IMG/VR virus record: IMGVR_UViG_3300037424_000199
Span: 1 to 60,175 of that record
Length of the DNA stretch: 60,175 nucleotides
Direction: 5' to 3' (one strand)
Origin: a virus
Taxonomy: Duplodnaviria > Caudoviricetes
Shown here: positions 9,452 through 52,979 of the stretch, piece by piece
How the letters are laid out: each line of letters opens with the position of its first letter
Numbering within the stretch: the stretch's first letter is position 1
Notes under the pieces: generated by a model
Told to the model about the DNA's origin: nothing
The model's input: the letters and a program-made list of their open reading frames with translations, nothing else
Database searches by the model: none
Translations under genes and position numbers: made by a program

Positions 9452-11761
9452 CTATTCCAGTATGCTCAAATCACTAACAACAAAGCACCGTTGAGTTGTC
9501 CCGTATTTTTCTTGAGCCCAAATTCTACCAAGCTCTTTAATACGATCGGCATCAACTAAGTTTTGAATTGCACGCTTAATAGCAAATGTAGCTTGAGCTT
9601 TATCATTACGAAATGCAGCAGCAGCAACCAAACGACGCTGAATATAGACATAAGGAATAACCTTATCTATATGTAAATTTTGAAACTTAGAATATTTATC
9701 AGCCTTACTATCACTATATGATTTAGTAATATAATCTTTAATAACTCTAATAATCTCATGAGCTTGTTTAACCTCAAACGAATTGCTACCAATCTCACCA
9801 GCCTCAAACCGCTCAGTCAAAGCAGCAATATCAGCTTGAACTAATTGAGCACTCCAATTCATATGCTCAGCATTAATTGTGGGCTCAATCATATTTTCCC
9901 CCACAGCAAGCAATGCTGATAACTTCAAAACCTTAATGTGCGCTCTATTCCAAAGTTGTCTAATAACTTCCTTGTTTGAATTATTAATACGACTGTCAGC
10001 ATACTTATCAAAATCATACAAAAGTTTAGCAGCGTCAGGAGTAGCTTGCACATTGATAACACGACGCGGATTAGAATGATTGACTGTCTCACACTGCGCG
10101 GCTAATGCCGCTAATCTTTCAATAAGATGAAATGAAGGTTCAACTTCAGTATGTCTTTCATTGAGTGGCGGACGATTGCCTTTGTATTCAACTAAAAGAA
10201 AACGAGGCAACAAACCCTCGCTAATCATATCCTCATTTAATGCGCCGTAAAAACGCTCAGGAGTACTTTCGCCCAAAATAGAGAAACTAGGACTTGGTAC
10301 AGCAGAAGTATTATTGGCTTTGTCTGAATATACGCTTGCGTGTAATATCTCTGAATAACCGGACTTATTATATAGATCAAGAAACATACGACGCAAACTA
10401 ACTTCGCTACCATTGGCATTAGGGCTGCTCATTTGTTGTAACCTCAATCCAAATTCACCTAATAGGCTGATGAATGATTGAGATTGATTGCCAAGATATT
10501 TAAATAGTGCTGATCCTGATGATATTTCTGATGGCCCAATAAAGCCAGAAGATGTAGGCACCTGAAACTTAATCTTACCCATCAGCTTATTAATACCTGA
10601 TGCGGCCGCTTCCTTACCTGCACCAGTCATAGCCAATAGCAATACATATTGGTTTAGTCCTGTACCAGATATGTTGTAAGCTCTGCCGCATATCCCAGCC
10701 ATTAATGCAATAGCAGCAGACAATGCTACCTCAGGCACAGGACGCGGCGCAGCTTGATAGATGAATGATGCAATATCACCTAATAGGCCCGGTGGGGTGG
10801 TAGGAGTGGCAGGATTTGAACCTACATCTAAGCCGTTATGAGCGACTGGCTCTAACCGTTGAGCTACACTCCCGTTTAACTTAACTTCAGCTAATTTAAT
10901 CTCAATACCGTTCTTTAATCCATCAAAATCCAATGGAGGAAGCATACGGTCAAAGGACCGTGAAATCATTCCATTTACATAATCTTTACGTTTAGCTTTA
11001 TCTCTCCTGCCAAGTTGTGAGCTAATAAATATTCTTGCAATTTGAGTTTTGTTTTGCGTGTAGAAGCTGATAATATCAATAATGGCAAAGTCTGCTTCGG
11101 ATTGTGATGAATAGCTATCTTGCCAGCTACCACTATAAAGGAGCTTAAATCTATCTCCGTTGACTGCTTCAGTTGCTCTTTTAATAATTTCTTCATCTGT
11201 ATCTTTCTCCTTATCAGTTCCATTGTACATTGACTGAGCAACAGGACCACTACCCATCTGTTCCCATAGCTGAGTTAACTGTGATTGACAATCAATAATA
11301 GCATTTCTACCCTGATATACGTTACCAGTCATGGTAGCATATCTATCGTGTGGGTAAATCTCTATCTTGCTCCTACGCCTTCCAGCAGGAACCTTACCCT
11401 TACAAATTAAGTGTAAGCCTTTACCAGAAGGGCTAACTTCAGCATAGGTTTCAAATTCATGATATACTTTTAAATGACGCTGTAATGTTGCATCATCGCC
11501 TTCAGCATCATCTAAATCTATAAATGAATAAGGATCACTGTTGCTAAACACAAACCCAATGCCAGAATAGCTATTAGCAAACTTGTGTACATCATCAAAC
11601 GTAGACCAAGTGGCAGGTTCTGTAACATTAGCTAATTTTCCATTAGGTTGATATGGAACCTTAGTAGGCTTAGCGGCTCCAATATCTTCATATTTCCATA
11701 GTACCCATTGTTTCAATAGGCGCAATTCGGCTGGGATATTCTGATAGAGTGATGCTGGCAT
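9452..11761 (-). CDS. Primase-polymerase (NrS-1-like AEP + helix bundle) fused to a DUF3987-like helicase/ATPase domain
   Basis: WVLW...KVPY, GIGFVF, FIDLDD, EVSPSGKGLH, IEIY...RYATMTG, SQSEADFA; C-terminal P-loop AMTGAGKE. Confidence 0.85.
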   Translation of the reverse strand: MPASLYQNIPAELRLLKQWVLWKYEDIGAAKPTKVPYQPNGKLANVTEPATWSTFDDVHKFANSYSGIGFVFSNSDPYSFIDLDDAEGDDATLQRHLKVYHEFETYAEVSPSGKGLHLICKGKVPAGRRRSKIEIYPHDRYATMTGNVYQGRNAIIDCQSQLTQLWEQMGSGPVAQSMYNGTDKEKDTDEEIIKRATEAVNGDRFKLLYSGSWQDSYSSQSEADFAIIDIISFYTQNKTQIARIFISSQLGRRDKAKRKDYVNGMISRSFDRMLPPLDFDGLKNGIEIKLAEVKLNGSVAQRLEPVAHNGLDVGSNPATPTTPPGLLGDIASFIYQAAPRPVPEVALSAAIALMAGICGRAYNISGTGLNQYVLLLAMTGAGKEAAASGINKLMGKIKFQVPTSSGFIGPSEISSGSALFKYLGNQSQSFISLLGEFGLRLQQMSSPNANGSEVSLRRMFLDLYNKSGYSEILHASVYSDKANNTSAVPSPSFSILGESTPERFYGALNEDMISEGLLPRFLLVEYKGNRPPLNERHTEVEPSFHLIERLAALAAQCETVNHSNPRRVINVQATPDAAKLLYDFDKYADSRINNSNKEVIRQLWNRAHIKVLKLSALLAVGENMIEPTINAEHMNWSAQLVQADIAALTERFEAGEIGSNSFEVKQAHEIIRVIKDYITKSYSDSKADKYSKFQNLHIDKVIPYVYIQRRLVAAAAFRNDKAQATFAIKRAIQNLVDADRIKELGRIWAQEKYGTTQRCFVVSDLSILE
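10798..10873 (-). tRNA. tRNA with CAU anticodon (probably tRNA-Ile2), embedded in the primase ORF
   Basis: GGGAGTG TA GCTC AACGGTTA GAGC C AGTCG CTCATAA CGGCT TAGAT GTAGG TTCAAAT CCTGC CACTCCT A CCA: 76-nt cloverleaf with encoded CCA. Confidence 0.88.
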
Positions 11762-22878: not shown

Positions 22879-23247
22879 TCATTTTCTATGGATCATACTA
22901 TATAAAAAAGTAAATAGCCCACGATAAGGATATAAAAACTTAAATGGATATGAGCGCCGTCCTTTATTATTTGGGGGAGCCCTCATACCTAATGCTACCG
23001 CATTAATAGCTAAAAGTACCCCGCTAGCACTCACTAGAATTAAACAAGTTAACTTCCAATCAATTGATGAAATCGAGTATAATAAAGTAAGTGCTGCGAT
23101 AGTGAATGCTAATCGACGTAACCATTGCAAAGTAGGATGATCGATCTTACTAGTACGATCAGTTTCAGCTTGTTGCATTACAAATACTAGCAGCCCTGAT
23201 ACTATAAGAGCTACAAGTGTATACGCAAAATCAACCCAATCAGTCAT
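22879..23247 (-). CDS. Membrane protein (lysis-cassette associated)
   Basis: Three hydrophobic segments, basic C-terminus. Confidence 0.6.
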   Translation of the reverse strand: MTDWVDFAYTLVALIVSGLLVFVMQQAETDRTSKIDHPTLQWLRRLAFTIAALTLLYSISSIDWKLTCLILVSASGVLLAINAVALGMRAPPNNKGRRSYPFKFLYPYRGLFTFLYSMIHRK

Positions 23248-23536
23248 TTTTTAGCTTTCTGAGGATGTTCCATGACCCAGCAGATTCAACAATGCCTTGA
23301 CAAATGGCCATCCCAGCTAAACCGATAATGAATGCAGAAGTTCCGTCTGATGTTCCTAAGATTTTTCCGACCGTGGAACCAAGATAATTTGCAGCAAGGC
23401 CCCCGACGACGATGGAACCTATAATCGCCCAAGGCTTGGACTTTTTAAAGACGAAAGCATTGGCCACGCCACCCGCAAATCCAGCTACTAAATCTTGCAG
23501 ATGAATGCCAACTAACGACAGGAAATCATTAGACAT
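23240..23536 (-). CDS. Putative holin
   Basis: 98 aa, 2-3 TM segments, AGFAGG motif, basic C-terminus; in lysis cluster. Confidence 0.6.
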   Translation of the reverse strand: MSNDFLSLVGIHLQDLVAGFAGGVANAFVFKKSKPWAIIGSIVVGGLAANYLGSTVGKILGTSDGTSAFIIGLAGMAICQGIVESAGSWNILRKLKND

Positions 23537-23995: not shown

Positions 23996-24210
23996 ATCGG
24001 AGGAAGCGGCGCGTTAAATTCGTCTAAATCACGGTCTAACTGCGCTCTAACATCATCGATCTGTGTCTGTGTAACAGTTCCAGCAGCAGCATCTTCAGCT
24101 AGCTTCTGAATTTTCTTAATACGATCATAAACGTTTACCCCTGCTTCAATGAGGGAAGGAAGCGCAGCCATCGCCGCAGCAATTAGCTTTAGAATTAGTT
24201 CTGTGTTCAT
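23992..24210 (-). CDS. Hypothetical protein (lysis cluster)
   Basis: Overlapping ORF with hydrophobic N-terminus. Confidence 0.6.
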   Translation of the reverse strand: MNTELILKLIAAAMAALPSLIEAGVNVYDRIKKIQKLAEDAAAGTVTQTQIDDVRAQLDRDLDEFNAPLPPI

Positions 24211-24614
24211 GGTAGGCTCCCAACGTTCATTCCTACTTCTGCGGCGGACCTTTTGAGGTTGCCGTAAAGCGCGACCAACTGATTATAGGCTACTGTAGCG
24301 TTGACCTGATCATTGTTATCAACAAACGATCTAAGCTGCGCAATCAATGGTTTTGCTTGTCTAGTATAAGGCTGAATAATTTCTATGTTCTGTCTACAGT
24401 TAACATCAGCAGTACCAGCGATACATGCACGCCGATAGGAAAGAAGTATTTGTAAAGCTGCATCAAATCCTAGTTCAATCTGTGCTTCTTTCTCTTTCGT
24501 GACTGGATTGGCAATAGTTGCGGTAGCAAATTGAGCAATGTTTTGCAGCGTTTGAAGCTGTGCACAACCACTAAGTGTTAGTACAAGAATTAAAGATGCA
24601 ATAATACGGCGCAT
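24207..24614 (-). CDS. Lipoprotein (possible spanin component)
   Basis: MRRIIASLILVLTLSG|C lipobox; two further Cys. Confidence 0.65.
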   Translation of the reverse strand: MRRIIASLILVLTLSGCAQLQTLQNIAQFATATIANPVTKEKEAQIELGFDAALQILLSYRRACIAGTADVNCRQNIEIIQPYTRQAKPLIAQLRSFVDNNDQVNATVAYNQLVALYGNLKRSAAEVGMNVGSLP

Positions 24615-25123: not shown

Positions 25124-25912
25124 TTAAGCCTCGTTAGTTGAAATTTTTCCGTTACTCGTTACTAAAGGTAATGACTGCAAACCAATATGATTAGGAGCAC
25201 TAACACTGCTAGGCCACCAAAAGCCTTTATTCAAACGACTTACAGGAAACGGTATAATACTGACTTTATCGGATTGATTTCCGCCTAGCCCCATAATATT
25301 CCCATGTTGGTCCTTGCCCACAACTACAATGACGTGTCCCCCGCCATTGCGAAGCATAGGAGCAAACGCGCCCACTGCCGGACCATTTAGCCTAACTGAT
25401 GGCCATTTGCCAGCAAAATCTAGAGCCCAAAGGGTTTCAGTTCCCTTTAGCCCAACTTTAGTTAAAATATGATTGGCGAAAAGCGCGCACCATGGAACGC
25501 TATCGTGAGTATAAGTTTCGCTTATATCCCCGCCTTCCTCTTTAGCCCAATCAATAATAGATTGATTGTCCTTAGAGCCAATGATTTCTTTAGTGCCAAC
25601 TAATTTAATACCAGCTTCCAACCATAAAGGACGATTAATTTCTGAATGCTCAATTGTGGGCAAAGCATTTTCTAATGGAGCAGCGTCGATAGCTTTAGCT
25701 GTCAATGGCCCTATTTCACCATCAGTAATAAGCCAAGCACGACGCTGAAATGCTTCAACAGCAGTATCAGTAGCAGAACCAAAATAGCCAGTACCTTTTA
25801 ATTTGTATCCCCTTTTAGCTAATTCTAACTGAGCTAGCTTAACTAAGTCACCACTCATTCCCATTTTTAAAGTAAGAGAAGGCTTAGAAATTTTATCGGA
25901 TAAAGTTGGCAT
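25124..25912 (-). CDS. Endolysin: peptidoglycan-binding domain + TIGR02594/NlpC-P60-like amidase
   Basis: LKMGMSG..V...Q..L...GY...G.FG..T..AV..FQ...DG.IGP.T; VPWCALF, GGGHV, LGGNQSD. Confidence 0.85.
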   Translation of the reverse strand: MPTLSDKISKPSLTLKMGMSGDLVKLAQLELAKRGYKLKGTGYFGSATDTAVEAFQRRAWLITDGEIGPLTAKAIDAAPLENALPTIEHSEINRPLWLEAGIKLVGTKEIIGSKDNQSIIDWAKEEGGDISETYTHDSVPWCALFANHILTKVGLKGTETLWALDFAGKWPSVRLNGPAVGAFAPMLRNGGGHVIVVVGKDQHGNIMGLGGNQSDKVSIIPFPVSRLNKGFWWPSSVSAPNHIGLQSLPLVTSNGKISTNEA

Positions 25913-25925
25913 TAATATATCTTTC

Positions 25926-28900
25926 TTATGGATTGAACGAAACCCATCCAGCGCTAGGTCTAGCATCTGCTGCACGACTAGCCCCGGCAGGTTGACCATT
26001 TAAAACTAAATTAGTACTACAGCCATTTTTTACAGCGTCATATATAGCAAAATTACCAATACTATTAGTTGCTTGTAATTGCACTAAATTAGTACACCCA
26101 TTTCCACCAGTAGCATGCATAACAGTCGCCGAATGCGTAGCAGTGGTCATGTTGATATTTATACCTGTAGTAATAGCTTCAGTATGAAAACCATCTAATG
26201 TTATTTGACCACCTATCATATTTACAGCATTTCCAGCATAAGTTCCTTCTGATACAGTATCATAAAATTTTAATAAGGTAGTTCCTGCATTTAAAACTAT
26301 GCCATCACTATTAGCAGTAGAAAACATAGTACAAAATAAATTATGTGATGTGAATAAAGCTGCGCCACCGTAGCCTGTATCGTATCTAAAACAACCACGT
26401 TGGCCGCCATAGATAGCTACATTACTAATAGCTCTAAGTTGCTGAGCAGCGTTAGTATATAGCATGTAAGTGCCAGCATTACCAGTAGGCGTAATAGTGG
26501 CCGATAATCCTACATCTGCTATCTGAGCGCCAAAACAAGCTATTTGTGAATTAGGATCGCATAACGTTACAAAATTAGAACCTCCTCCAATACCAGCATC
26601 GCACATATGAAGTTGCGAATTTACTGGTCCTTGTCCTCTAAGCTGAGTACCTCCGTAAATAGTCAATGCGCTACATACCATAGCTACACCCTTAGGAAGC
26701 AACACAGCAGTAGACGCCATTGGTCCTCCATTGGTTGTAAAACCATTTATAGAAGGAAGATAGGCAGCATAATCAAGAGCAGCTTGGATAGCTGCAAAAT
26801 CATTGGTAGCAGAACCATCTACTCCTAGCCAATCAAATACAGCGCCGAATTGTCTAGGATCAATAAAGTTATCAGAAACATACTGCCACTTATTACCCCC
26901 TGCATCAGTAAAGCTAGCTCTAACAGTAGTAACGGTTGCTACTGTAAAAGTAACAGTAGTAGAGCAGCCGGTAATGGTTGCTGATAGAACATCTCCGACA
27001 GCATAACCATATCCACCAGCATTAAACGTTTTAGTAATAGCAGAGACTACATTAGCTGTTACAGTAACGTTAGCCATAAAGCCAGTGCCGACACCGCCAG
27101 AAAAAATAGTTCCTCTATAGGTTCCATTAGTACAACCTGATGTTCCGTTATTTGAAATAGTCCCTGATGCTACGTTTTGATCTAAAAATTCTCCTGCTGC
27201 TTTTCTATAGAAAGTAGCTCCTCCACCGTCTGTAGCGGACGCATATCCTAATGTTTTTATAGCATTAACATTAGTTAAATCTAAAGCTGCCGCTGCGGTT
27301 CTAGTTTGAACAACTAAAGATGTTGGGGTAGTCCAAGTTTGAGTAGTAGGAACTAACTGGCTAATAACTGTAGTACCTGAGCCGGAAGGAACACAGCCAG
27401 ATAATGCACCTGTAAAAATATTACATGATGCTGTAACTTGAGTAGCAGTTACAATTCCTTGATTACCTCCAACACTAACAACACCAGCTTGAGCAGCAAA
27501 TTGAAGCCACACTAAAGGATCAGTGCCAACAGTTGTTACAGTAGCTTGTAATACCCAGCTAGTACCAATATTAGTAGAACCTGATGTGATAAGAGTATAT
27601 GAACCTGCTGTCATCTCAGCAGCTTCATCAAAATAAGTAGCTCTAGTTAAAACCCAAGGTGCAGCACCGCTACCAGCGTCAGTTACCGTATAGATGCCAT
27701 TTTGAAAAGACGATGCTTGGTCTTTAACAAGCACAACAGTGCTTAATGGCGCTGCTGTTCCGTCTACAGTTAAAGTTGTATTAGAACCTGCTGTTAATGT
27801 AGCTCCTACACCTAAAGCTCCATTAGAATATGTAGGAGTATTTGGAAGCACAGCCGCAGTTGCTAAAGCAGATTGAGCTAAAATATTTAATCCAGTAGCA
27901 ACACTATCAACATAAGCTTTAGTAGCAGCATCGGTAGGATTAACAGGAGCGTTAAGATCAGTAATAGAAGTAGCCCCTCCCGATACAACTATACCAGCAC
28001 TAAATGTTTGTTCTGCTGAAAAAGTATTAGCTGTATTTAAAAGTGGGACAGTATTGCCGCTAGTACCAATGTTAGCTGTGCAAGCTGTCCCAGCATCAAT
28101 TAGATTAGAACAACGAGCAATACTCAAATTAACATCAGGAGCTATTTTAACAATATAGTTTATAGTTTTAGATGGCTGAATGATAGAAAATGGAACTGCT
28201 GAATAAATAATATTTAAAGTTCCTGCGGTTCCTCCTCCACCAGTAGTAGAAGCAGGATTAGTAGGAACCACAGAACATTGGCCCGCTGTTACTAATACAG
28301 GATCGGTAATAGCACCAGCTACAATGGTAACGTTAAATTGTGGTTGAGTAGTACAAGTTCCTCCTGATACGGTTAGTAATTGCGTTCCAGCAGTATAGCC
28401 AGAACCGCCAGCAGCTACAGTAGCACTAACAGCAATACCCCCAGTATTAGCAGACACTGCAATAGCTTGCGCTGCATTTGTGGAAGTTCTAGCTGCTAAC
28501 GTAGTGGTTGTGTTTCCAAATTGACCAAACGCGCCACCTGCCGCATTAGATGACACTAAAGCGGTAGTTGCATTTGGTATTTGAGTATCAGTAGTTGTGA
28601 CGCTAATAGAATTGGCGCCAGATGAACTTACATTAGGAAGGCTGGAAGAAATTAAAGTTTTTGATTGGCTACCACCGTTACCAGCTAAAGAATTCGGATC
28701 GGTATAAAAAGATACCGTCAAATTAGCTGAGCTAGAACCTCCCATATTATTTCTACCGGGAAGCACAACACCACGTAAATCGGGAGCATTAAAAGTAGTT
28801 AAACCATTACCATTGCCCCACGGAAAGAAAGTACTAGTAGTAGTAACAGAAACAGTTGCGTTAGAACTAATAGTAACCGTAGTAGAAGTTTTAGAAATAA

Positions 28901-29510
28901 CTGTAGAGCCAGCAGTAATACAAGCTGCTTCTACTGCTGCTCCAACGTTTATTTGAGTAGTGTCACTAACATTAGTTAAAGTAGCATTTCCACTGATACA
29001 AGTAATATTTTGAGTTAAAGTTATAGCACTAAGCAATTGTGAATATGTAGTTCTATCTAGCTCTTGCCCATAAGAAAAAGCATAATTAGCAGGAGCTACA
29101 AAACCAGACCAAGGCAAAACACTACCTACAGCCAACCCATCTCCTACTGTAATACTACCTGAGCCTCCAGCCCCAGCAGATGAAGTATTTTTATCCCATT
29201 GGATATTATTATTACGATCTTTTACAACCTGACGATAAGAACCATTTCCTAAAATCAAAGCTCTACCAGCAGCATCCAATACAACAGGATTGGTATTTAA
29301 AACTGTAGCATCCGCATCTTTCCAAGTTGCTTTGCGAGTGCTGGTGCTCGGAATATAAAAATCTACAGTTCCAGACGTTAAAGGCTTTCCATTTCTATCT
29401 AAAAATGTAGTCATAGCTGGCGGTAAAATCGCCGCGTTCTGAGCATACGCAAAGTGAACTTGCGCAATTATAAGCGCAGAAAGAACGAAAGTTTTAAAAA
29501 TGGAATACAT
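25926..29510 (-). CDS. Tailspike/tail fibre (head-binding domain, tail-collar domain, beta-helix depolymerase-like C-terminus) with N-terminal signal peptide
   Basis: MYSIFKTFVLSALIIAQVHFAYA|Q then FLDRNGKPL...NTNPVVLDAAGRA...GSYRQVVKD; TTFNAPDLRG collar; DAATKAYVD; DPRQFGA...NDFAAIQAALD. Confidence 0.85.
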   Translation of the reverse strand: MYSIFKTFVLSALIIAQVHFAYAQNAAILPPAMTTFLDRNGKPLTSGTVDFYIPSTSTRKATWKDADATVLNTNPVVLDAAGRALILGNGSYRQVVKDRNNNIQWDKNTSSAGAGGSGSITVGDGLAVGSVLPWSGFVAPANYAFSYGQELDRTTYSQLLSAITLTQNITCISGNATLTNVSDTTQINVGAAVEAACITAGSTVISKTSTTVTISSNATVSVTTTSTFFPWGNGNGLTTFNAPDLRGVVLPGRNNMGGSSSANLTVSFYTDPNSLAGNGGSQSKTLISSSLPNVSSSGANSISVTTTDTQIPNATTALVSSNAAGGAFGQFGNTTTTLAARTSTNAAQAIAVSANTGGIAVSATVAAGGSGYTAGTQLLTVSGGTCTTQPQFNVTIVAGAITDPVLVTAGQCSVVPTNPASTTGGGGTAGTLNIIYSAVPFSIIQPSKTINYIVKIAPDVNLSIARCSNLIDAGTACTANIGTSGNTVPLLNTANTFSAEQTFSAGIVVSGGATSITDLNAPVNPTDAATKAYVDSVATGLNILAQSALATAAVLPNTPTYSNGALGVGATLTAGSNTTLTVDGTAAPLSTVVLVKDQASSFQNGIYTVTDAGSGAAPWVLTRATYFDEAAEMTAGSYTLITSGSTNIGTSWVLQATVTTVGTDPLVWLQFAAQAGVVSVGGNQGIVTATQVTASCNIFTGALSGCVPSGSGTTVISQLVPTTQTWTTPTSLVVQTRTAAAALDLTNVNAIKTLGYASATDGGGATFYRKAAGEFLDQNVASGTISNNGTSGCTNGTYRGTIFSGGVGTGFMANVTVTANVVSAITKTFNAGGYGYAVGDVLSATITGCSTTVTFTVATVTTVRASFTDAGGNKWQYVSDNFIDPRQFGAVFDWLGVDGSATNDFAAIQAALDYAAYLPSINGFTTNGGPMASTAVLLPKGVAMVCSALTIYGGTQLRGQGPVNSQLHMCDAGIGGGSNFVTLCDPNSQIACFGAQIADVGLSATITPTGNAGTYMLYTNAAQQLRAISNVAIYGGQRGCFRYDTGYGGAALFTSHNLFCTMFSTANSDGIVLNAGTTLLKFYDTVSEGTYAGNAVNMIGGQITLDGFHTEAITTGININMTTATHSATVMHATGGNGCTNLVQLQATNSIGNFAIYDAVKNGCSTNLVLNGQPAGASRAADARPSAGWVSFNP

Positions 29511-29634
29511 ACCTTTAATCCTATTAGCTCTCTTAATTTTTAAATATCGCAACTATATCTGGATGCCCACATTACTCATTTTAGTTGCTTACGCAAAGTT
29601 TAAATTGTATGATCCTATTTCACTTCAAGTAAAA

Positions 29635-32928: not shown

Positions 32929-33690
32929 TTATGAAGAAAACGGGGTCGGCCCGCTAGGACCACCTAAAGTAATTGGTCCTGATGATTTACCATATAATCC
33001 ATTATACATAGCATAACCACTAAGATTATTTGATAGATTAGAAATAGAACTTCCAGTAGCATTAGCAGCGGCAGCTTGCGCATTAGCTCCACTAGTTAAA
33101 GCTGTCCCAGTATTATAGGCTGCCTTTTCACCCAATACACCTGTGCCAGTAGCAGCACTAGCACCAGTATCAATTAAACCTTTAAGGCGATTGTAAGAAT
33201 TAGTTCTATTGATATTTTCCATATCAAAAGCAGTCTTATATGTATCTGTAGCCAATCCTTTAGCAAATGCTGCTGCACCTTTTAAAGCTGCACCTGATGA
33301 CGCCAATCCTCTTGCTGCTGCGGAGTTAGTAACAGCTTTTTGACCTTGAGTAGAAGCAAATTTATAATAATCACTTCCTTCTAGGACATTAGGATCAATC
33401 GAAATAGGTGAAGTTAATTGATCGAGACTTTTAGTCATTCTGCCAGTAGCATCAGTACCAATATCACGATAAGGACTTAAATCTGATCTGGTTTGCTGAT
33501 ACTGCTCCTGCTGAATAGCTGCTACGCGGTCAGCATTCTTAGACTGAATATCAGCAGCTTTATTAGCTCCATAAATAGACGCACCAGCCCCAATAACTGC
33601 TGAGCCTATAACTGCTGTTGCTACCCATGCATTACATAAGCAAGGATCAACAAATTCAAAATCTATGTTTACCTTGCTGCTAGTAATCAT
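32929..33690 (-). CDS. DNA transfer/ejection protein (P22 gp7-like)
   Basis: WVATAVIGSAVIGAGASIYG...DLSPYR..G...YKF...QGQKAV.NSAAARG...SGAALK. Confidence 0.75.
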   Translation of the reverse strand: MITSSKVNIDFEFVDPCLCNAWVATAVIGSAVIGAGASIYGANKAADIQSKNADRVAAIQQEQYQQTRSDLSPYRDIGTDATGRMTKSLDQLTSPISIDPNVLEGSDYYKFASTQGQKAVTNSAAARGLASSGAALKGAAAFAKGLATDTYKTAFDMENINRTNSYNRLKGLIDTGASAATGTGVLGEKAAYNTGTALTSGANAQAAAANATGSSISNLSNNLSGYAMYNGLYGKSSGPITLGGPSGPTPFSS

Positions 33691-34106
33691 AATTTAAATT
33701 CCAATTGATTAGCGTTACAAAACTCTAACCATTCATCTTCAGACTTAGCAATAAAGTGATCTTTAATTTTATCTATATCAATATCATCAGTACCGTGAAT
33801 TGTAGTCCATACACAATCAGTTAAAGTGTGGGCCGCACGCTTAGTACCGGGAGGGGAAACAACTGTAAATGGCGCGGAAACTTCCTTAACCCCTTCCTCA
33901 GTCGTCACTATCATAGTTCCGGCAGACAAAATATTTAAATTTTCAAATTTATGAATTTCGCCAGTTAATGTAACCCCTGCTGGTATATGAAGTTCTCTAG
34001 CATAAACACCTTTAGAAAAATGATGTATTACTTTTAATTCTATTTGAGGCATCATTTTTAAATGATCCTCAAGTGCAAATACTTTATCACGTAAAGCTAA
34101 TTGCAT
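33687..34106 (-). CDS. Cupin-fold phage protein
   Basis: HHFSKGVYARELHIPAG..LTG.IHK...SPPGTKR.......WTTIH. Confidence 0.7.
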   Translation of the reverse strand: MQLALRDKVFALEDHLKMMPQIELKVIHHFSKGVYARELHIPAGVTLTGEIHKFENLNILSAGTMIVTTEEGVKEVSAPFTVVSPPGTKRAAHTLTDCVWTTIHGTDDIDIDKIKDHFIAKSEDEWLEFCNANQLEFKL

Positions 34107-34445
34107 TTAAGCTCCCAAAAATTGTACTGTTGGTAAAACAGAATATGTAACTATAACGGTATCCCCAATACGAATAGGAACAATCAATGGAGTAACTATA
34201 GACAATGGGATAGTGTCTAACCCTCTAACCAAATCAATATCTGATATAGTACCACCAGAAATAATTAAACTACCATTAGCATTAGCTGTATAAGAAAACG
34301 GCGAAGCACTAACAGTTATAGCTTGAACAGCAGGAGCCGGTTGAACTAATTGTTGAAAGAAACTATTCCAAGGTGGAAGTAAGTACCCAACGTTATTAGC
34401 AACTCTAACTAAAGCTGCCTGCATATTTAATACAGGTTGCGTCAT
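34107..34445 (-). CDS. Putative tail/needle-associated protein
   Basis: ITVSASPFSYTA beta-rich domain; follows gp10-like gene. Confidence 0.55.
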   Translation of the reverse strand: MTQPVLNMQAALVRVANNVGYLLPPWNSFFQQLVQPAPAVQAITVSASPFSYTANANGSLIISGGTISDIDLVRGLDTIPLSIVTPLIVPIRIGDTVIVTYSVLPTVQFLGA

Positions 34446-35887
34446 GTTGCTGCTTTCACAACTTCAATAAAAGCTCCATTTAAAGCAGTTTTAGCATTAG
34501 CCGAACTACTTAATTTAAATATCCTGTCTCTAGCCATACCCAATCTATTCCAAGATGGCACAGTACGATATTCACCAGTCCTACCCATAGATTGAGTGAC
34601 TGGATTACCATAAGACTTACCCTTATCGTCTGACCAACTTAAAGAAATTAAAGGATCATCCTCTTGATCCTCTATCGTTCCTACTTCAATATCAGCATCA
34701 AAACTTTTAAAAACTAGCTTATCATTATTATCAGTCATATGCGGAAACGTCCTTATCCAAACAATAGGACTTCCATCATCTGTATATGAATTTATATCTA
34801 ATTTTAAAAGTTTTCCGTTTTCCCAATCTCCAACTAAATTAAAACCATTAGCAAACATACAACAATTAGCTCTAGGTCTTAAAAAGTTTCCATTGTCATC
34901 AACCCAATTCCATTCATTCCATTGCTTGGTTTTTAAATCGTATAACCAGCCTTTACTAGCGGTAGGAAAAACCAATGCATAAAAAGCATGATCCTCGATT
35001 TGAAAACAAAAACCTACAGCATCAGATAGAGTGACATAACCTTTCATCATATTTACTGTTCTAGGTGTAGATATTTCAGTTAATTCATATCCTTGACCTT
35101 GAACAATTAGACCATTTCCTTGTTGATCTTGCATAATGAAAAATACAAGTACATCCATAGTAGCTATAGAATATTGAGCCGCGCACCCATGATTGATATA
35201 TGCGCCTTGAACTCTTTGAAAATAAAAATCTGCTGCCCCCGTACCAATCCAAATTTCTGTAGTTCTATTTCCTATTAACCAAAGCTCACCATGAATTGTT
35301 ACGATGCCCACAATAGGATCATTGAAGCCAGACTTAGTAGCAATGTCTAATGGATCAAAAGCTCCAATAGTACTTAGTAAAGTGAAATCAGCATTTGAAA
35401 CAGATATAAACCATTGGTTAGTACCCGGAACATTAAATATATAAAATGTGTCTAACAATGCTACAAAATCAGCGCCATAGAAGTTTGGATCAGTTATTTG
35501 CGAAAACGCATTAGTAGCTATATCTATGACATATCCATTGACACCATCTACTAGGACAATGGTCAAACCATTATCTACCATATAGACTTGGCTTAAGCGG
35601 TCAGCTATATTCCCAATTAGCACTACAGTCTGATCACTTAAAACATAATAAACATTAGGACCAACTACATAGTAAGCTGTTCCTATGCTAGTATTGTAAC
35701 AACCTCTTGCGGTCCTAGCGAAATCAGGATCAACATATAAAATTGTACCGGGGGTAGGGTAATAGGTAACTTTAGCTGGAGCTTGAGGGTCTTTTTCATT
35801 AATCTCAGCATAGAGATTAACGCACTCTTGCCCTGAAGCAATAATGCTTTTTCCATCATAGGCTGAGCTTATAAGTTCAACTCTCAT
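34442..35887 (-). CDS. Packaged-DNA stabilisation / tail hub protein (P22 gp10-like)
   Basis: QECVNLY.E, PTPG, beta-propeller-like repeats, LSWSDD.G..YGN, WNRLGMARDR. Confidence 0.82.
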   Translation of the reverse strand: MRVELISSAYDGKSIIASGQECVNLYAEINEKDPQAPAKVTYYPTPGTILYVDPDFARTARGCYNTSIGTAYYVVGPNVYYVLSDQTVVLIGNIADRLSQVYMVDNGLTIVLVDGVNGYVIDIATNAFSQITDPNFYGADFVALLDTFYIFNVPGTNQWFISVSNADFTLLSTIGAFDPLDIATKSGFNDPIVGIVTIHGELWLIGNRTTEIWIGTGAADFYFQRVQGAYINHGCAAQYSIATMDVLVFFIMQDQQGNGLIVQGQGYELTEISTPRTVNMMKGYVTLSDAVGFCFQIEDHAFYALVFPTASKGWLYDLKTKQWNEWNWVDDNGNFLRPRANCCMFANGFNLVGDWENGKLLKLDINSYTDDGSPIVWIRTFPHMTDNNDKLVFKSFDADIEVGTIEDQEDDPLISLSWSDDKGKSYGNPVTQSMGRTGEYRTVPSWNRLGMARDRIFKLSSSANAKTALNGAFIEVVKAAT

Positions 35888-36873
35888 TAGTAAGCATCAG
35901 CGTTAAAGATATAGAAGCCCGCTCCTCCACCCCGCCTAAAGCGAAGTGAGCTAGGCATTTTTAGTGATGGAATTTGAGCGTTCTGATTTTTAATATCATT
36001 CAATGCAATCTTAGCTAACTTTCCTTGCACTGGATTTGTGGGCAATTGATAATGAGCAACTAATCTTACACACAAATTATAATGAACAGCTTCTTCGTAT
36101 TCATCTGGCATATTAAATTCAGCATCTAAATCTGTAGTAACATTAGTAACAGTATATTCAAAATTTGTACCAGCACCTATAATGCTTGTATCTAATGATA
36201 ATACATCTCCAATTCTATAACCTGTCCCACCATCAGCTAAAGCAACTACTGTTACTAATCCACCAGCGACGGTAACATCAGCAGTACCGCCAGAACCAAA
36301 ACTACTTATGTTAGTAAAAGGAACAGTTAAATAAGCACCGTCATTGTATCCAGTTCCTGCATTTGAAATTTCACCATTCGAAATAACCACAGTAAATCCA
36401 ATCGGACCCTTTATAACTAAATGAACCTCATATAGAGATGAAGGGATCGGCCAAATATAAACATTTCCATATGGGAACTGACCGTCATAAAAGAAATACT
36501 GAGGCCATGTATTTAAATTCTTTAAAGCTATCCTAGAATAATCTTCCCAACTAAAAATAGGAGTTAACGGATAGCTCACTTCATTAGCTACGCTACCTGC
36601 ATTCAATTGCTTAAAATAAGCAGCTTGAATAAGATTAGGTCTAGATGCATTATAATATTGTCCGGGGCCAATAAGATTAGATTTTAAATTATTACCGGGG
36701 GCGGATACTTCATAAAGATTAGGAACAAGCCAACGCTTTTTCTGCCATCTAGAAAGCATTCTAGTTAGCAAAGTAAAGCCATCATTAATATCTTCAGAGA
36801 GCGGGGTTTGGCCTACACCAGTTACCCCGCTTTCACGTAATGCTAATGTTACGAAGTCTCTTGCTGTTGTCAT
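35887..36873 (-). CDS. Head-tail adaptor (P22 gp4-like) with an inserted beta domain
   Basis: TARD.V..ALRESGV.GVGQTP..ED...L..ML; MPDEYEEAVHYNLCVRL; insert with AGTGY/GGTGY repeats. Confidence 0.72.
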   Translation of the reverse strand: MTTARDFVTLALRESGVTGVGQTPLSEDINDGFTLLTRMLSRWQKKRWLVPNLYEVSAPGNNLKSNLIGPGQYYNASRPNLIQAAYFKQLNAGSVANEVSYPLTPIFSWEDYSRIALKNLNTWPQYFFYDGQFPYGNVYIWPIPSSLYEVHLVIKGPIGFTVVISNGEISNAGTGYNDGAYLTVPFTNISSFGSGGTADVTVAGGLVTVVALADGGTGYRIGDVLSLDTSIIGAGTNFEYTVTNVTTDLDAEFNMPDEYEEAVHYNLCVRLVAHYQLPTNPVQGKLAKIALNDIKNQNAQIPSLKMPSSLRFRRGGGAGFYIFNADAY

Positions 36874-37196
36874 TTAGCATTAGGCCATGCTGGAGCTTTA
36901 TCTTTACCTTTAGGCTCTTTCTTAACCTCAAGCTCAGATTTTACAGCATTGCCACTAGTATGCTGAGCTTCTTCCATAGCGCTATTAACGATTTCACGTT
37001 TACCAGTAATATTGCTAGTTATTTTTTTAGGGTAAACGCTATGCCCATATTCATTTAAAATGTTGGGGTCTTTACCATAGCCGGGGTGAGGATTTGAAAC
37101 TGTATAAGGGTTAAGATTTAATGAAGTACCATCACCAATACGATCTTTAAAGGGAACATCTAAATCTTTAGGTTCTGGAAATTGCGCCTGAGCCAT
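36870..37196 (-). CDS. Hypothetical virion-module protein
   Basis: YPK...IVNS..EE motif; follows the capsid gene. Confidence 0.6.
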   Translation of the reverse strand: MAQAQFPEPKDLDVPFKDRIGDGTSLNLNPYTVSNPHPGYGKDPNILNEYGHSVYPKKITSNITGKREIVNSAMEEAQHTSGNAVKSELEVKKEPKGKDKAPAWPNAK

Positions 37197-37230
37197 TTTT
37201 AATTTTTCCTACTTTTATTTAAATTAGGTG

Positions 37231-37258
37231 TTGACTTAAGAAATAGACCGTATATACT
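37231..37258 (+). promoter_or_regulatory. Early-type promoter inside the late region
   Basis: TTGACT-16-TATACT with the CCGTA element shared with early promoters. Confidence 0.7.
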
Positions 37259-37288
37259 CAATTATATCAGCAAACGGGAGCTACACAA

Positions 37289-37507
37289 ATGACCTACTTC
37301 TGCACCACTCACAAATATGAAGATTTGAACGCTTTAGTTGGCGAAAAGCTGGATATGTGCACTTCTCATATGGTTTTTGATAGCTTTTACGATATTGAGC
37401 AGTATATGAAGGCGCCTAGACCTAATTGTGTAGTGTGGGAAATGGAAAAAGATACTACTGCTAAATTTGGCTACCGATTTAAACGTCTTTATGGCATTCC
37501 TGCCTAA
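37289..37507 (+). CDS. Moron-like hypothetical protein, antisense to the structural operon
   Basis: Own promoter, GGGAG RBS, ends at the capsid terminator hairpin. Confidence 0.7.
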   Translation: MTYFCTTHKYEDLNALVGEKLDMCTSHMVFDSFYDIEQYMKAPRPNCVVWEMEKDTTAKFGYRFKRLYGIPA

Positions 37508-37515
37508 AAGATTAA

Positions 37516-37541
37516 AGGGGCTGGCTTTTATACCAGCCCCT
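37516..37541. terminator. Hairpin terminator between the convergent capsid and moron genes
   Basis: aggggctgg / ccagcccct 9-bp stem. Confidence 0.7.
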
Positions 37542-46403: not shown

Positions 46404-47792
46404 TTATAGACTACCCATCCACGATCTATTCTGTTGCCCTATCGGCAAATTAGGCCCAGTGAGTTTAGGCTTTTTACTATCAGCTTCAGTTTTTAAAGAT
46501 AATGCAAAAGTCTGAAAAGCGTCTGCCCCATGGCTCCAAGGTGTATCATGATCCGGTTCGCGTGAAAAGCTTCCTGTTTCTTCATTAACTTTATAGGCAT
46601 AGCGGGAAAGACACTGCCAACCATCAGCAGTGTTAGCTTCATCAAAGTTGCAAAGTTCAAAAATTGTTCTAGCTGCATTGATGCCCACAACTTTCTTTGA
46701 GGGCCGGTTAACAACTACAATTTTAGAATTTGGAAAAGCCTTTCTAGTCATGCTAGCAATAGACCTAGCAGCTAATGTTTCATTATCAGCATCATGAGGC
46801 TGATACATAACCGAATAATTATAAGGTTTGCTTCTCAATATTTCATGATAGTGAGGAAGTTTCTTAAGTCTATTTTCATAATAATCAATAAGATTAAATT
46901 CTAAGCCTGAGCGCTGAATAAACCATATAGCAGTCTTATCAGAATGTCCCAAATCCCATGCGAGAAAAACAGGCTTAGTTGGATCATGAGGAATACGCTT
47001 ACGCCTACCATCAAGCAAAGTTTGTCTGATTTCGTCAGCATAGATAGCCCCATCCAAGGTTTGCTTAGTAAAGCCTTCCCAAATTTCTAAATATTTTTGT
47101 TCATTGTGAACTTTATCCAAATTCATTTGCTGGCGTAAATCAGGAGGAAACCAACGATTATCCGAATAATTAATTTTAACTACATAAGCATAACGCTCCA
47201 TTTCTCCTGTAACTTCATTGACTAAGTAATCAGGAGCATTCTTATCTTTATCAATAACGAAACGCTTATAAGTTTCATCGTCATCTAATTCAGGGTTAAA
47301 TGTTATCCAAACTTCAGGACCTTTTTTAAATGGTCCACCCATACCATTAGGATCAGTCTCATGCTTACCACGAATTGTAGGCATTAACTTATCCCATGAT
47401 GTTTTAGAAACGTTATTAGCTTCTTCTACCCAAGCAATGTCAATTTTAGCAAGAGACTTAATAGAATTAATTTTATAGCGGAGTCCTGAAAAAATAAATC
47501 TAGAACCTGTGCGAATACAAGTAATAGACTTATCTTTAATATCAAATTCATTTTCTAAATCATAAAGAGCTATGTAACTTTCAATTGTTTCTTTAACACT
47601 TTCCTCAATAGATTGCTGAATTTCGCGCAAGCATAAAATGCGCAATTTCATCTTAAGAGCTAGAATAATTAAAGCTATGGCATAGCCATCCGTTTTACCG
47701 CCACCGCGACCGCCATACGCAATCTTTAAACGGGCAGGTTCAAATAAAAATTCTAATTTTTCTAAAAATTCTATTTCCAAAAGTATCACCAA
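46404..47792 (-). CDS. Terminase large subunit (PBSX-like)
   Basis: YGGRGGGKT, LREIQ.SI.ESV, WVEEA, FNP, WDLG..D.TAIW, SHGADAF. Confidence 0.93.
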   Translation of the reverse strand: MVILLEIEFLEKLEFLFEPARLKIAYGGRGGGKTDGYAIALIILALKMKLRILCLREIQQSIEESVKETIESYIALYDLENEFDIKDKSITCIRTGSRFIFSGLRYKINSIKSLAKIDIAWVEEANNVSKTSWDKLMPTIRGKHETDPNGMGGPFKKGPEVWITFNPELDDDETYKRFVIDKDKNAPDYLVNEVTGEMERYAYVVKINYSDNRWFPPDLRQQMNLDKVHNEQKYLEIWEGFTKQTLDGAIYADEIRQTLLDGRRKRIPHDPTKPVFLAWDLGHSDKTAIWFIQRSGLEFNLIDYYENRLKKLPHYHEILRSKPYNYSVMYQPHDADNETLAARSIASMTRKAFPNSKIVVVNRPSKKVVGINAARTIFELCNFDEANTADGWQCLSRYAYKVNEETGSFSREPDHDTPWSHGADAFQTFALSLKTEADSKKPKLTGPNLPIGQQNRSWMGSL

Positions 47793-47799: not shown

Positions 47800-50307
47800 T
47801 TATGGCACCGCGCTCTGATCCGTCTGCATTGTGATCGTGAACGTCGGCGGCGTCGTCATTCCACTGAAGTTGCCTCCAGTCCACGGATTAATGTTTGCCG
47901 GAACCCACACTGCATTTGGCGGATACCCACCAGTCAGAGGAGAGCCCGAGGGGGCCGAGATTGTATCTCCTGAACACCCTCCGGGGGAGCCGTTGCAGGT
48001 CACCCCACCGGGTGTGATGACGCGAGTTCCCGCCTGCTTGAGGTTGATAGTAGGCCAAAATCGAAATTGTGTCCATGTGGATTGATCAACCGTTACTCCG
48101 CCACCACTGGATGAGAATTGCGCAGTCGGATTTAGGATAGATGTTCCGGTACCGACAAATGGCTGCGTGACATCAATTGTGAGACTAACGAATTTGCCAT
48201 AAGCTGGCATCGTCGCTTGCTGTGCGACCGACGATGCCGTGAACGTACGAGTGATGTACTCGGCTAACGGAGCACCCGAAGTAGCACCAGCTTGAACGCT
48301 CATACCAACAGCGTTCGCGTCACCTGTACAATCATCACAAGTAAACGCTGGGGAGCCCAGCACCCTGAATTGGATTGGGTTTGCCGACAGTGCACTAAGG
48401 TCCGGGAAGCCGCCCGAGGCATTGGTTTGCATGTAGGTGTTACTGGTGCCCCATTCCAGCGACTTAGACGACGCAGATAGCGTTGTTGAGGCCGCATCAA
48501 AAACAACCACATTCTGCGCGTCTGTGAACGCAGTGATGAAGGTTTTTAGATTGGTGCCACCACTGCCTGCCCCGGGAACAATGATGACCCTACCAACATC
48601 ACCAGACGCAAAAATTGGCGTGGATACTCCAAGATTTTTAGAACTACTAGAAATGGTGACGTTCGTAGTCGCTGTTTGCCCATCGACCGCTGGCCATCCA
48701 TCACCTGTGACCGTCGATATGTCCCACATTCCAGCTGAGAAGTATCCGGTGGTTTGAAAAAACAGCCGTGTGTTTGGAATAAATGGCCGTTGCCCTTCAG
48801 ACAACGAGTTCGGCATTGTGATCAATCCACTGGCCATACTATAAGGCCATATGGAGTAGATCATCGGATAACCAAACTGCGTATTTATCGTGGTGATGTT
48901 GCAACGAGTGCAACTCGACGCCCCGGCAGTATTGCCGTAGGCAAAGAACCCGGGCCCCCAATTGTTTAGAACGCTGTCACTGATTTCGGTACGTTTTGCT
49001 CCGCCATCTAGCCTGTTGGTGACGGTAGAATTTCGCATGATAAATAAATCGGTGGAAGAGCTTTGAAATATGATCTGCGCAATTGTCACTCCATCCATTA
49101 GCATGGTTCCAACCAGTTTGTCGGTTTCCATGTTCACATTTATAAAAGTAGTATTGATCGCACTCCATGTCTCGTTTTGGCTTGGAATAGCGCTCTGCGC
49201 ATTGCCAAACGTGACATCGCGGAAGGTTACGTTTCGTGCGTTTGCGTAGGTCTGCCCATCTTGGTTTATCGTCAGTCCACGATACTCAACCGTACTATTC
49301 CATGAGTTCTGTGAAGCCCCTCCAACAGCCCAAATTGTCGCGGGTCCGCCCGCGTCAGTCTGATTTGTATTACCAGCATTGTACTGCGCCCAATCACTTT
49401 GGTATGAATTGGTGAGCGACCGATCAAGCGTGATTACACCTGTACCAGCGTCCACTGCGGTGATTTTCCGCCATTCAAAGAAGTTGGAATTTGGGGGATA
49501 TCCGAATGGTGACTGAAAAATCCCTTGAATGTCAAGGCCACCGAGCATCACCCACCGTCCGACAGAAAAGCGGCTGATGTAGCCCGCAGCAAGAGATGTT
49601 GTGGTTAACGTGACTGTGCTAGACCCGGATGACACAGATTGAATACGCGCTGAGCAGCCAGCGACATCAGTAAGTCCTTTGCTGCAAATGCCAAGCCCAC
49701 CAAGTTGGAAGGTTTGTCCGCCCATACTATTTATTGTGGCCCCAGCGCCTTCAACGATTAGGTTGTTGATACCTGCGGCGAACGCGTTAAATACGCTTAT
49801 GTAGTTGAAAGTCCCGTTGCCAAACCAGCAACTTGACCCGTTTGGTATCGTCAAGACAACTTGGTTGGCGGCCCCTTGATTAGCGCGCGCCCAATTGTTG
49901 AAAGTGTCGAAAGCGGCGTTGTCGCTGATCCCGTAGGATATGCTAGTGGACACTACAGAAAGCGTTGTCGTGGCATTAGTGCTCAAGACAACATTTTGAG
50001 CGTCTGTGAATGTGGATATTGTGCCGAAGTAGCGCCCACCACTATTTCCTGCTCCGTTAATGGTGATGTTTTTGCCAACATCGCCACTAGCAAAAGTATC
50101 AACCGTGACGCTAAGGTTCTTCGTTCCAGTGGTTATGCTGGCCGTGCGCGTGACCGTTAGCACATCGCCGTTGCAGGCTGCCCCGCCGTCAGTGACGATG
50201 TTGTAGAATATCTGCGGCGGTCCGGCGTAGGTCTGGAAAATCGCGAACGCCGCAAAAGCTGCGCTAGGGAGTAGACCAACCAGCGCAGCTAGAATAAGCT
50301 TCAGCAT
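47800..50307 (-). CDS. Secreted-type tailspike/beta-helix-like protein with an internal duplicated domain
   Basis: Signal peptide MLKLILAALVGLLPSAAFA|A; 10 Cys; two copies of KNLxV...FASGDVG..I...GAG..G...I..FTDAQNVV. Confidence 0.75.
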   Translation of the reverse strand: MLKLILAALVGLLPSAAFAAFAIFQTYAGPPQIFYNIVTDGGAACNGDVLTVTRTASITTGTKNLSVTVDTFASGDVGKNITINGAGNSGGRYFGTISTFTDAQNVVLSTNATTTLSVVSTSISYGISDNAAFDTFNNWARANQGAANQVVLTIPNGSSCWFGNGTFNYISVFNAFAAGINNLIVEGAGATINSMGGQTFQLGGLGICSKGLTDVAGCSARIQSVSSGSSTVTLTTTSLAAGYISRFSVGRWVMLGGLDIQGIFQSPFGYPPNSNFFEWRKITAVDAGTGVITLDRSLTNSYQSDWAQYNAGNTNQTDAGGPATIWAVGGASQNSWNSTVEYRGLTINQDGQTYANARNVTFRDVTFGNAQSAIPSQNETWSAINTTFINVNMETDKLVGTMLMDGVTIAQIIFQSSSTDLFIMRNSTVTNRLDGGAKRTEISDSVLNNWGPGFFAYGNTAGASSCTRCNITTINTQFGYPMIYSIWPYSMASGLITMPNSLSEGQRPFIPNTRLFFQTTGYFSAGMWDISTVTGDGWPAVDGQTATTNVTISSSSKNLGVSTPIFASGDVGRVIIVPGAGSGGTNLKTFITAFTDAQNVVVFDAASTTLSASSKSLEWGTSNTYMQTNASGGFPDLSALSANPIQFRVLGSPAFTCDDCTGDANAVGMSVQAGATSGAPLAEYITRTFTASSVAQQATMPAYGKFVSLTIDVTQPFVGTGTSILNPTAQFSSSGGGVTVDQSTWTQFRFWPTINLKQAGTRVITPGGVTCNGSPGGCSGDTISAPSGSPLTGGYPPNAVWVPANINPWTGGNFSGMTTPPTFTITMQTDQSAVP

Positions 50308-51263: not shown

Positions 51264-51273
51264 GGCGACTGCC

Positions 51274-52326: not shown

Positions 52327-52331
52327 TTATG

Positions 52332-52930: not shown

Positions 52931-52979
52931 ATACCACCTAAAAATAGGTATCGGGCCATTTCTGACCCGATAAATAATT

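Follow-up and report, generated by a model that had tools for sequence, protein, structure and literature searches.

We analysed a complete virus record of 60,175 bp from sediment (IMG/VR record IMGVR_UViG_3300037424_000199; Duplodnaviria, Caudoviricetes; 40.4% G+C), which is referred to in its entirety as the window, and focused on its tailspike gene, the product of which seems to begin with a Sec signal peptide. The gene lies on the minus strand, with its ATG at 29510 and its stop codon at 25926-25928, and its product is 1194 amino acids (aa) long. PHROG and Pfam scans of the window products revealed a P22-like podophage gene set (Table 1), in which annotation and synteny make the tailspike gene the final gene of the tail module, with the lysis genes coming next. 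The order Ad3-Hc3-gp112-needle-ejection proteins-tailspike is common to close and distant relatives, both signal-bearing and signal-less (18 loci), and annotation together with synteny across these loci puts the gene in the tailspike slot, which closes the module of tail and ejection proteins. The same tail module occurs in a Rhizobium puerariae prophage at 45-53% identity (Hc3 53%, Ad3 49%). A first scan of genome contigs yielded no close prophage or host, a profile scan gave distant relatives only, and the DNA polymerase of the window reaches at most ~43% identity to cultured phages. Of the sequencing runs, a sediment metagenome is the probable source of the window and a second run contributes a small share, with no RNA run listed as containing it.

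The domain architecture of the product was examined with profile searches and with AlphaFold2 (AF2) models built separately for the N-terminal (residues 1-330) and C-terminal (residues 760-1194) parts. A profile of 32 homologs matches the PDB chain 7eeq_A, 'Tailspike head-binding domain' (E 2.6e-4), with residues 16-59 of the chain aligned to profile positions 43-86, so that chain residue 16 corresponds to query residue about 40; 7EEQ is described as a tail entry of cyanophage Pam1 (PMC13730344). The N-terminal model contains a confident beta domain at residues ~31-112 (predicted local distance difference test, pLDDT, 83-94), for which Foldseek returned the head-binding domains of Pan3 (9vyg, E 4e-6), Pam1 (7eeq), P22 (1lkt, 2vky and the in situ structure 8eb7) and Sf6 (7sg7). 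Both the profile match and the fold match put this domain directly after the predicted cleavage site, and in signal-bearing forms it holds more than 20 invariant positions within aa 29-106. Further along the chain, the shaft module matches a chain of 9EFK, the portal-tail complex of Legionella phage LME-1, which is described as its tail fibre (PMC12407071). Tblastn found the same segment (aa 514-695) in annotated tail fibres of cyanophages, of Pelagibacter and Methylophilales phages and of other phages, and by these matches it is a widely exchanged fibre module; together with the 40% G+C, the matches would offer at most a faint hint of the host. The C-terminal model (mean pLDDT 85.4, predicted template modelling score 0.85) is a right-handed beta-helix, with Foldseek matches to CBA120 TSP2 (6w4q, E 3.5e-7), the Klebsiella K2-2 tailspike protein (8iq9) and the Sf6 tailspike (2vbe), as well as to Acinetobacter Fri1 gp49, tailspike 6c72 and alginate epimerase and lyases, while a PDB sequence search with this domain gave no match. 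By its fold, the beta-helix is of the depolymerase type. The C-terminal part is hypervariable in contrast to the conserved N-terminus, with 49 variable-part clusters among the listed homologs described below, and the whole protein is low in charged residues (K+R+D+E 7.8%) and rich in threonine and serine (23%). The head-binding fold, the syntenic slot and the beta-helix together support, in silico, the assignment as a P22-type virion tailspike.

The N-terminus of the tailspike reads MYSIFKTFVLSALIIAQVHFAYA|QNAAILPPAMTTFLDRNG, exactly as quoted in an initial annotation of this DNA, which had proposed that the main tailspike itself bears a signal peptide. Signals were called here with our own heuristic for the n-, h- and c-regions and with alignment column statistics. 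A search with tailspike residues 1-330 gave 227 matches, 120 of which were listed, and all figures for long homologs refer to these 120 listed matches. A hydrophobic N-terminus before the invariant (T/N)A(S/A)ILP motif was found in 120/120, homolog P0032 being the sole case in which the gene call begins inside the h-region. A positively charged n-region is provided by K6 in the window, and K or R stands ahead of the uncharged run in 119/120 homologs; this run has a median length of 17 residues (range 10-23), and the h-region TFVLSALIIAQVHF of the window protein reaches 2.57 in its top 10-residue Kyte-Doolittle window. At the predicted cleavage site, position -1 is a small residue in 120/120 homologs (A91, G12, S11, C6), position -3 is mostly alanine (A95, S6, I3, V3, L3, T1, with about 9 others that are likely alignment shifts) and position +1 is mostly glutamine (Q105, D13). 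The signal sequences are divergent and share one layout, as in homologs beginning MKFSIKVF... or MRHFMRFI..., and because the layout is kept while the sequence diverges, the N-terminal feature appears to be selected as a signal, in agreement with the proposal. The AF2 model shows a helix at residues 2-20 and, at 20-30, a linker of low confidence. After the predicted cut, the mature protein would begin with Gln24; an N-terminal glutamine may cyclise to pyroglutamate, which would block Edman sequencing. Two other signal types were considered and rejected, namely a Tat signal, as the twin-arginine motif (S/T-R-R-x-F-L-K) occurs in 0/120 listed homologs, and a lipoprotein signal cut by signal peptidase II, as the window protein has no cysteine at +1. 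The six listed homologs with cysteine at -1 carry Y or F before it, the lipobox (L-[AS]-[GA]-C) having been judged by eye.

The same head-binding domain is found with and without a signal. Among 34 loci that match up to the domain start, 17 have an n/h/c signal, 12 start with M-x(0-5) at LLP and 5 are ambiguous. Shorter homologs (129 matches, 120 listed), which were assigned to signal classes by regular expression, comprise 64 signal-bearing, 50 signal-less and 6 unclassified proteins among those listed, and signal-bearing spikes occur also in distant, high-GC lineages. All six homologs inspected from cultured phages are signal-less and begin with M-x(1-3) at the domain (Rhodoferax P26218, Xanthomonas PBR31 'tail spike protein', Shewanella X14 'tailspike protein', Vibrio FGH, Ralstonia P4282 and Pseudomonas PAE2), with 37-54% identity to the window spike in the N-terminal domain, which bears out the initial statement that the attachment domain normally starts near residue 1. 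Similarly, the spike of the Rhizobium puerariae prophage, which occupies the same gene slot, begins MATILPTGETTF and has no signal. The signal-less spikes (the 12 loci with a clear start, the 50 short homologs and the 6/6 cultured-phage forms) open with M-x(1-3)-LLP where the mature part would start, so the predicted cleavage would regenerate their native N-terminus.

We next examined the cysteines of the tailspike, of which there are 18 (positions 171, 197, 386, 412, 467, 477, 696, 706, 793, 849, 946, 970, 984, 992, 1040, 1060, 1139 and 1164), with 8-56 residues inside consecutive pairs and 14-219 between pairs. The earlier count of 18 in nine local pairs was exact as a count; the pairing is inferred and is backed by covariation. 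C171 and C197 are invariant in 120/120 listed homologs, 386/412 are both present in the same 26/120, 254/261 occur jointly in 25/25 homologs of the listed set, 467/477 are found in 19/19 and 696/706 in the same 6/19. In the 15 homologs available for the C-terminal part, 793/849 are jointly present or jointly absent, while 890/907 co-occur in 3 homologs and 808/836 in 2. The cysteine count of the mature part is even in 116/120 listed homologs (binomial p 1.3e-29). If residues that precede the ILP anchor (signal and gene-call extensions) are counted too, this falls to 71/120, since 60 homologs carry cysteines in that stretch. With one representative per variable-part cluster, 47/49 counts are even (p 4e-12). 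Among the listed short homologs with at least one cysteine, signal-bearing forms split into 51 even and 6 odd counts, whereas signal-less forms split into 17 even and 20 odd (Fisher p 9e-6). Within the window genome, 7/7 signal- or lipobox-bearing proteins have even counts (2, 18, 10, 8, 8, 2 and 4) and contain 1.74% cysteine, in comparison to 0.82% and mixed parity in 29 other proteins. These in silico patterns support the view that in signal-bearing forms, and only in those, the cysteines act as disulfide pairs. DsbA is described in PMC2689190 as coupling consecutive cysteines.

Export signals are not limited to the spike. The initial annotation had placed the gene 18 kb from a secreted cluster and had suggested a genome-wide strategy, and we observe that a cluster of five further signal-bearing open reading frames (ORFs) at 47800-55321 lies 18.3 kb from the tailspike gene, with the small terminase gene (55353-56063) on one side and the large one (46404-47792) on the other, which confirms the distance. 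At least 6 other window proteins carry export signals, and a complete relative has 6 such ORFs in addition to its lipoprotein, which supports the suggestion in silico. The cluster ORFs are rich in T, S, A, G and N and low in charge, with 10, 8, 8, 2 and 4 cysteines, 19-30% T+S and 6-9% K+R+D+E, like the tailspike, and none of the five has a family match. The 835-aa cluster protein shows a weak PHROG 'pectin lyase' match and, by eye, an internal repeat (ASGDVG...TDAQNVV). The cluster proteins may serve as accessories to an exported receptor-binding apparatus, or they may be morons that modify the envelope. In the complete relative (G001, 58,913 bp), the six signal-bearing ORFs all have even cysteine counts and include the spike and two ORFs after it. 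The spike of G001 is only 578 aa long (34363-36099), the two ORFs between spike and endolysin (36102-36602 and 36602-37519; 166 and 305 aa) bear signals and even cysteine counts, and a further signal-bearing ORF of 569 aa lies at 26407-28116. Judging from these ORFs, the receptor-binding apparatus of G001 looks as if it were split into several exported proteins.

The cluster also holds a 133-aa ORF, p133 (79% identity in G001), and an ORF with several transmembrane (TM) segments at 53709-54800, which has a sub-threshold Wzy_C match (E 0.002, 18.4 bits, cut-off 31.7). PglL-type enzymes are Wzy_C proteins. Periplasmic O-glycosylation through this ORF was considered and rejected, as a homolog is present in the records of 1/5 relatives and in 0/2 complete ones and NCBIfam gave nothing; with the gene in one of five relatives, glycosylation is not a general explanation. 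A 155-aa ORF (53426-53893, minus strand), which on visual inspection looks TPR-like, shares 185 nt, read in a different frame, with the 3' end of the Wzy_C-like ORF. A split gene or a frameshift could account for this overlap; in another relative (G002, L161), the homolog has an open frame 319 aa long.

Downstream of the spike lie the endolysin, a membrane protein and a lipoprotein. A sequence screen of the endolysin revealed no signal and no TM-like 18-mer, and therefore a hole-forming holin would be needed for its release; small multi-TM ORFs at 22879-23536 are holin candidates. The mechanical ORF of the endolysin starts at 25999 and overlaps the spike 3' end by 74 nt, and translation probably begins at the ATG at 25912 (MPTLSDK...), 13 nt past the spike stop codon. 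The spanin-type lipoprotein suggests a diderm host.

Table 1. Features of the tailspike gene, its product and the rest of the window (coordinates are those of the window)
Feature	Position	Strand	Basis or remarks
Tailspike gene	25926..29510	minus	ORF list and translation; 1194 codons plus stop
Predicted Sec/signal peptidase I signal peptide, aa 1-23	29442..29510	minus	n-region MYSIFK, h-region TFVLSALIIAQVHF, c-region AYA, cut before Q24
Head-binding (virion-attachment) domain, aa 24 to about 112	29175..29441	minus	Profile and fold
Phage tail collar domain PF07484, aa 129-163	29022..29126	minus	Pfam, 35.4 bits (above the cut-off of 24)
Second beta domain with C171/C197, aa 156-235	28806..29045	minus	AF2, pLDDT 82-93
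Tail-fibre shaft module, aa 514-695	27426..27971	minus	PDB 9efk_AE, E 1.5e-35; PHROG 2647
C-terminal right-handed beta-helix with 10 Cys, aa 760-1194	25929..27233	minus	AF2 and Foldseek
Ribosome-binding region TAGGA ... AAAGG before ATG 29510	29512..29523	minus	Read from sequence
Conserved DNA element TGTGGGCATCCA..TTGCGA.ATTTAAAAAT	29536..29570	minus	Alignment of relatives
Endolysin (PG_binding_1 and CHAP-like)	25124..25912	minus	Pfam
Lipoprotein, lipobox LSGC, o-spanin-like	24207..24614	minus	Lysis-cassette position, no family match
Secreted cluster, signal-bearing ORF	47800-50307	minus	Own signal screen
Secreted cluster, signal-bearing ORF	50307-51263	minus	Own signal screen
Secreted cluster, signal-bearing ORF	51274-52326	minus	Own signal screen
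Secreted cluster, signal-bearing ORF	52508-52930	minus	Own signal screen
Secreted cluster, signal-bearing ORF	54746-55321	minus	Own signal screen
139-aa 'short tail fiber / adhesin' protein	33687-34106		PHROG
P22 portal			Pfam PF16510, E 1e-133
P22 coat protein			Pfam PF11651
Large terminase, scaffold, adaptor Ad3 (gp4-like), head-closure Hc3 (gp10-like)			PHROG/Pfam
Short needle or fibre protein, ejection protein			PHROG/Pfam
Replication module: primase, helicase, DNA polymerase			PHROG/Pfam

These sequence features are best explained by a P22-like podophage whose virion tailspike has gained a classical Sec signal peptide. We give a probability of roughly 55% to the reading in which the spike undergoes Sec export, signal cleavage and oxidative folding in the periplasm, and then docks on spike-less cytoplasmic particles after the holin has opened the inner membrane. 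Late in infection the precursor would be translocated by SecYEG, signal peptidase I would cut after A23 to leave the N-terminal Gln24, and the chains would fold and trimerise in the periplasm, where the host Dsb system would oxidise the nine consecutive cysteine pairs, a pattern that DsbA could make without an isomerase. Meanwhile, DNA-filled particles with portal, adaptor, hub and needle would form in the cytoplasm without spikes. Once the holin permeabilises the inner membrane, the pools of spikes and particles would mix within the intact outer membrane and the spikes would dock via their freed N-terminal domain, before endolysin and spanin release the finished virions. Because capsids and DNA packaging are cytoplasmic and a Sec substrate is periplasmic, we infer that spikes are added only after inner-membrane breakdown. 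In P22, spikes are added last, in a step that can be separated from the rest of assembly, and P22 heads and tail parts have reportedly been joined in vitro (Israel et al. 1967), which speaks for feasibility. A broader version, to which we assign slightly less than even odds, would extend this to widespread uncultured podophages, in which the tailspike and accessory secreted proteins are Sec-exported, oxidatively folded and stockpiled in the periplasm, and join spike-less cytoplasmic particles only between holin triggering and outer-membrane rupture, with the depolymerase possibly cutting nascent receptor polysaccharide from inside.

Other explanations of the N-terminus were weighed against this reading. 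An annotation artefact, in which translation begins at Met33 and the upstream 32 codons are non-coding and only look hydrophobic, draws on the ATG at codon 33 and on the tendency of AT-rich leaders to translate into hydrophobic residues, yet the frame is open with the n/h/c layout in 120/120 listed homologs and the Met33 column reads K98, Y7 and M6. The ILP motif (L29 in 119/120, P30 in 120/120) sits upstream of Met33, and a Shine-Dalgarno-like TAGGA lies 8 nt ahead of the ATG at 29510, while inspection of the sequence upstream of Met33 found no such site. We regard this explanation as barely credible, and the start at the downstream methionine, which the initial annotation had named as the outcome that would overturn its claim, is effectively refuted; as far as sequence can tell, the signal is conserved and functional-looking and is not a start-codon artefact. 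It is also quite improbable that the hydrophobic N-terminus remains uncleaved, as a membrane anchor or assembly helix, or that the spike stays cytoplasmic with its cysteines oxidised only after release. Cleavage itself is a prediction and AF2 models residues 2-20 as a helix, but the small residue at -1 and the predominant alanine at -3 are what signal peptidase demands and an anchor would not require, even parity appears only without the cysteines upstream of the ILP anchor, and signal-less homologs begin exactly at the predicted mature end; a type II anchor, moreover, would still place the spike in the periplasm.

An alternative that accepts export and cleavage is that the spike acts chiefly as a free periplasmic or released depolymerase, with few or none on virions and with the needle or the short-fibre protein performing adsorption. 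Such an enzyme could strip receptor from the infected cell, provide superinfection exclusion or loosen the matrix. The depolymerase-type beta-helix found by Foldseek is compatible with it, as are the 139-aa 'short tail fiber / adhesin' protein encoded in the genome and the secreted-protein cluster, which suggests envelope-directed functions; in addition, a bacterial tailspike-fold enzyme, WceF, is described as exported to act on exopolysaccharide (PMC7949094). However, all signal-bearing forms keep a strongly conserved head-binding domain, for which the only sensible reading is that the spike must still bind the tail hub. The gene also fills the single tailspike slot, with no second head-binding-domain gene seen in the annotation and synteny of the window, and a conserved N-terminus with a hypervariable C-terminus (49 clusters) is the signature of a virion receptor-binding protein. 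We therefore consider the free-depolymerase alternative unlikely.

Several points weigh against periplasmic folding followed by late docking. Export, cleavage and disulfides are all deduced from sequence, and docking after membrane breakdown must beat dilution, which is a kinetic worry. Phage-encoded Dsb, thioredoxin and signal peptidase are absent from the Pfam scan of 54 ORF products. Odd cysteine counts occur in 4/120 listed long and 6/64 listed short signal-bearing homologs, and 7/64 short signal-bearing forms, some of which may be fragments, have no cysteine after the anchor; disulfides therefore cannot be the sole reason for export. Even counts are found in 30/50 signal-less forms, 13 of these having zero cysteines, and the parity counts are phylogenetically non-independent, though 49 variable-part clusters were used. 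As for the benefit, the initial annotation had proposed that particles are kept non-adsorbing until lysis, but this argument is weak because virions in the cytoplasm find nothing to adsorb to. A disulfide-stabilised spike for extracellular life, or a periplasmic depolymerase acting on nascent surface polysaccharide, are more plausible pay-offs.

The fold and the gene slot are those of a P22-type tailspike, and what is new is the Sec signal together with the disulfide design. Assembly of tailed-phage virions is generally regarded as confined to the cytoplasm. Among phage proteins, export signals have been discussed for endolysins, spanins and morons; where a review takes up such signals, it does so for endolysins only (PMC6116005). 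The signal is present in 120/120 listed long and in 64/114 classifiable short homologs (120 listed) and is thus not a one-off; on the strength of these alignments, the signal-bearing spike is a real, conserved and widespread feature. Its absence from 6/6 cultured phages checked would explain the lack of prior study. If the proposed route is correct, virion assembly would be split between compartments, the timing of lysis would gate infectivity, with the lysis clock doubling as the last assembly step, and spikes could use disulfides that the cytoplasm does not allow. Signal-bearing spikes may require periplasmic or oxidising expression for folding, and for such phages, counts of intracellular phage, as obtained for instance by chloroform lysis, could be misleading.

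Further features were observed around the spike gene and elsewhere in the window. The conserved DNA element TGTGGGCATCCA..TTGCGA.ATTTAAAAAT lies 20-55 nt before the tailspike start codon and is present as a single copy in the window; it is also found at the related loci L081, L084 and L087, and partially at L082 and L086. It may be a promoter, an operator or another regulatory site for late spike expression, and a promoter and terminator scan of the tailspike gene region gave nothing beyond chance. In the early region, a 113-aa ORF (5721-6062, minus strand) encodes the C-terminal domain of ribosomal protein L7/L12 (PF00542, E 1.4e-7, above cut-off). ARAGORN reported a tRNA-Met at 10798-10873 on the minus strand, within the primase ORF (9452-11761), a prediction that could be spurious, and a tRNA-Leu(UAA) at 56179-56266 on the minus strand, just upstream of the small terminase gene.

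Finally, we compared the window spike to known systems. No description of a Sec-signal tailspike of a tailed phage was found in openly searchable full texts, including the searchable portions of PMC6116005 and PMC13452462, with subscription journals lying outside this scope; the nearest case in these texts is a single NosD-like beta-helix protein of a virus, for which a SignalP signal is mentioned. The tailspikes of P22, Sf6 and the cyanopodophages Pam1 and Pan3, which have been solved in situ on the tail, share with the window spike the N-terminal head-binding fold, the position as last tail-module gene and the C-terminal beta-helix, whereas the Pam1 head-binding chain begins where the mature part of the window spike begins and has no signal. 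As far as is known, the native P22 tailspike has reduced cysteines only, in contrast to the 18 cysteines of the window spike, which fall in covarying pairs. The signal-less cultured homologs and the Rhizobium puerariae prophage (L001) share the N-terminal domain, and the prophage also the syntenic tail module, but signal-less relatives differ from signal-bearing spikes in their mixed cysteine parity. The filamentous-phage coat proteins pIII and pVIII carry Sec signals and assemble from the periplasmic side. They resemble the proposed spike route in being virion proteins with Sec signals, yet filamentous phages belong to another virus class and are extruded at the membrane, with no cytoplasmic capsid and no lysis. 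Among tailed phages, Sec-exported and signal-arrest-release (SAR) endolysins such as fOg44 Lys44 and P1 Lyz are described as pre-positioned outside the cytoplasm before lysis, with P1 Lyz using disulfide chemistry (PMC6116005). Lys44 and Lyz are thus, like the window spike as predicted, tailed-phage proteins sent via Sec, but they are lysis enzymes and not virion parts, and in the window phage the signal is on the spike and there is none on the endolysin. Lastly, Pantoea stewartii WceF is described as a trimeric beta-helix of tailspike fold from which an N-terminal export signal is removed (PMC7949094), and its chain 6tgf_F is a weak Foldseek match to the N-terminal model of the window spike. 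Unlike the window spike, WceF is a bacterial enzyme with no head-binding function that uses a Tat signal for export in the folded state, whereas the predicted signal of the window spike is of the Sec type.

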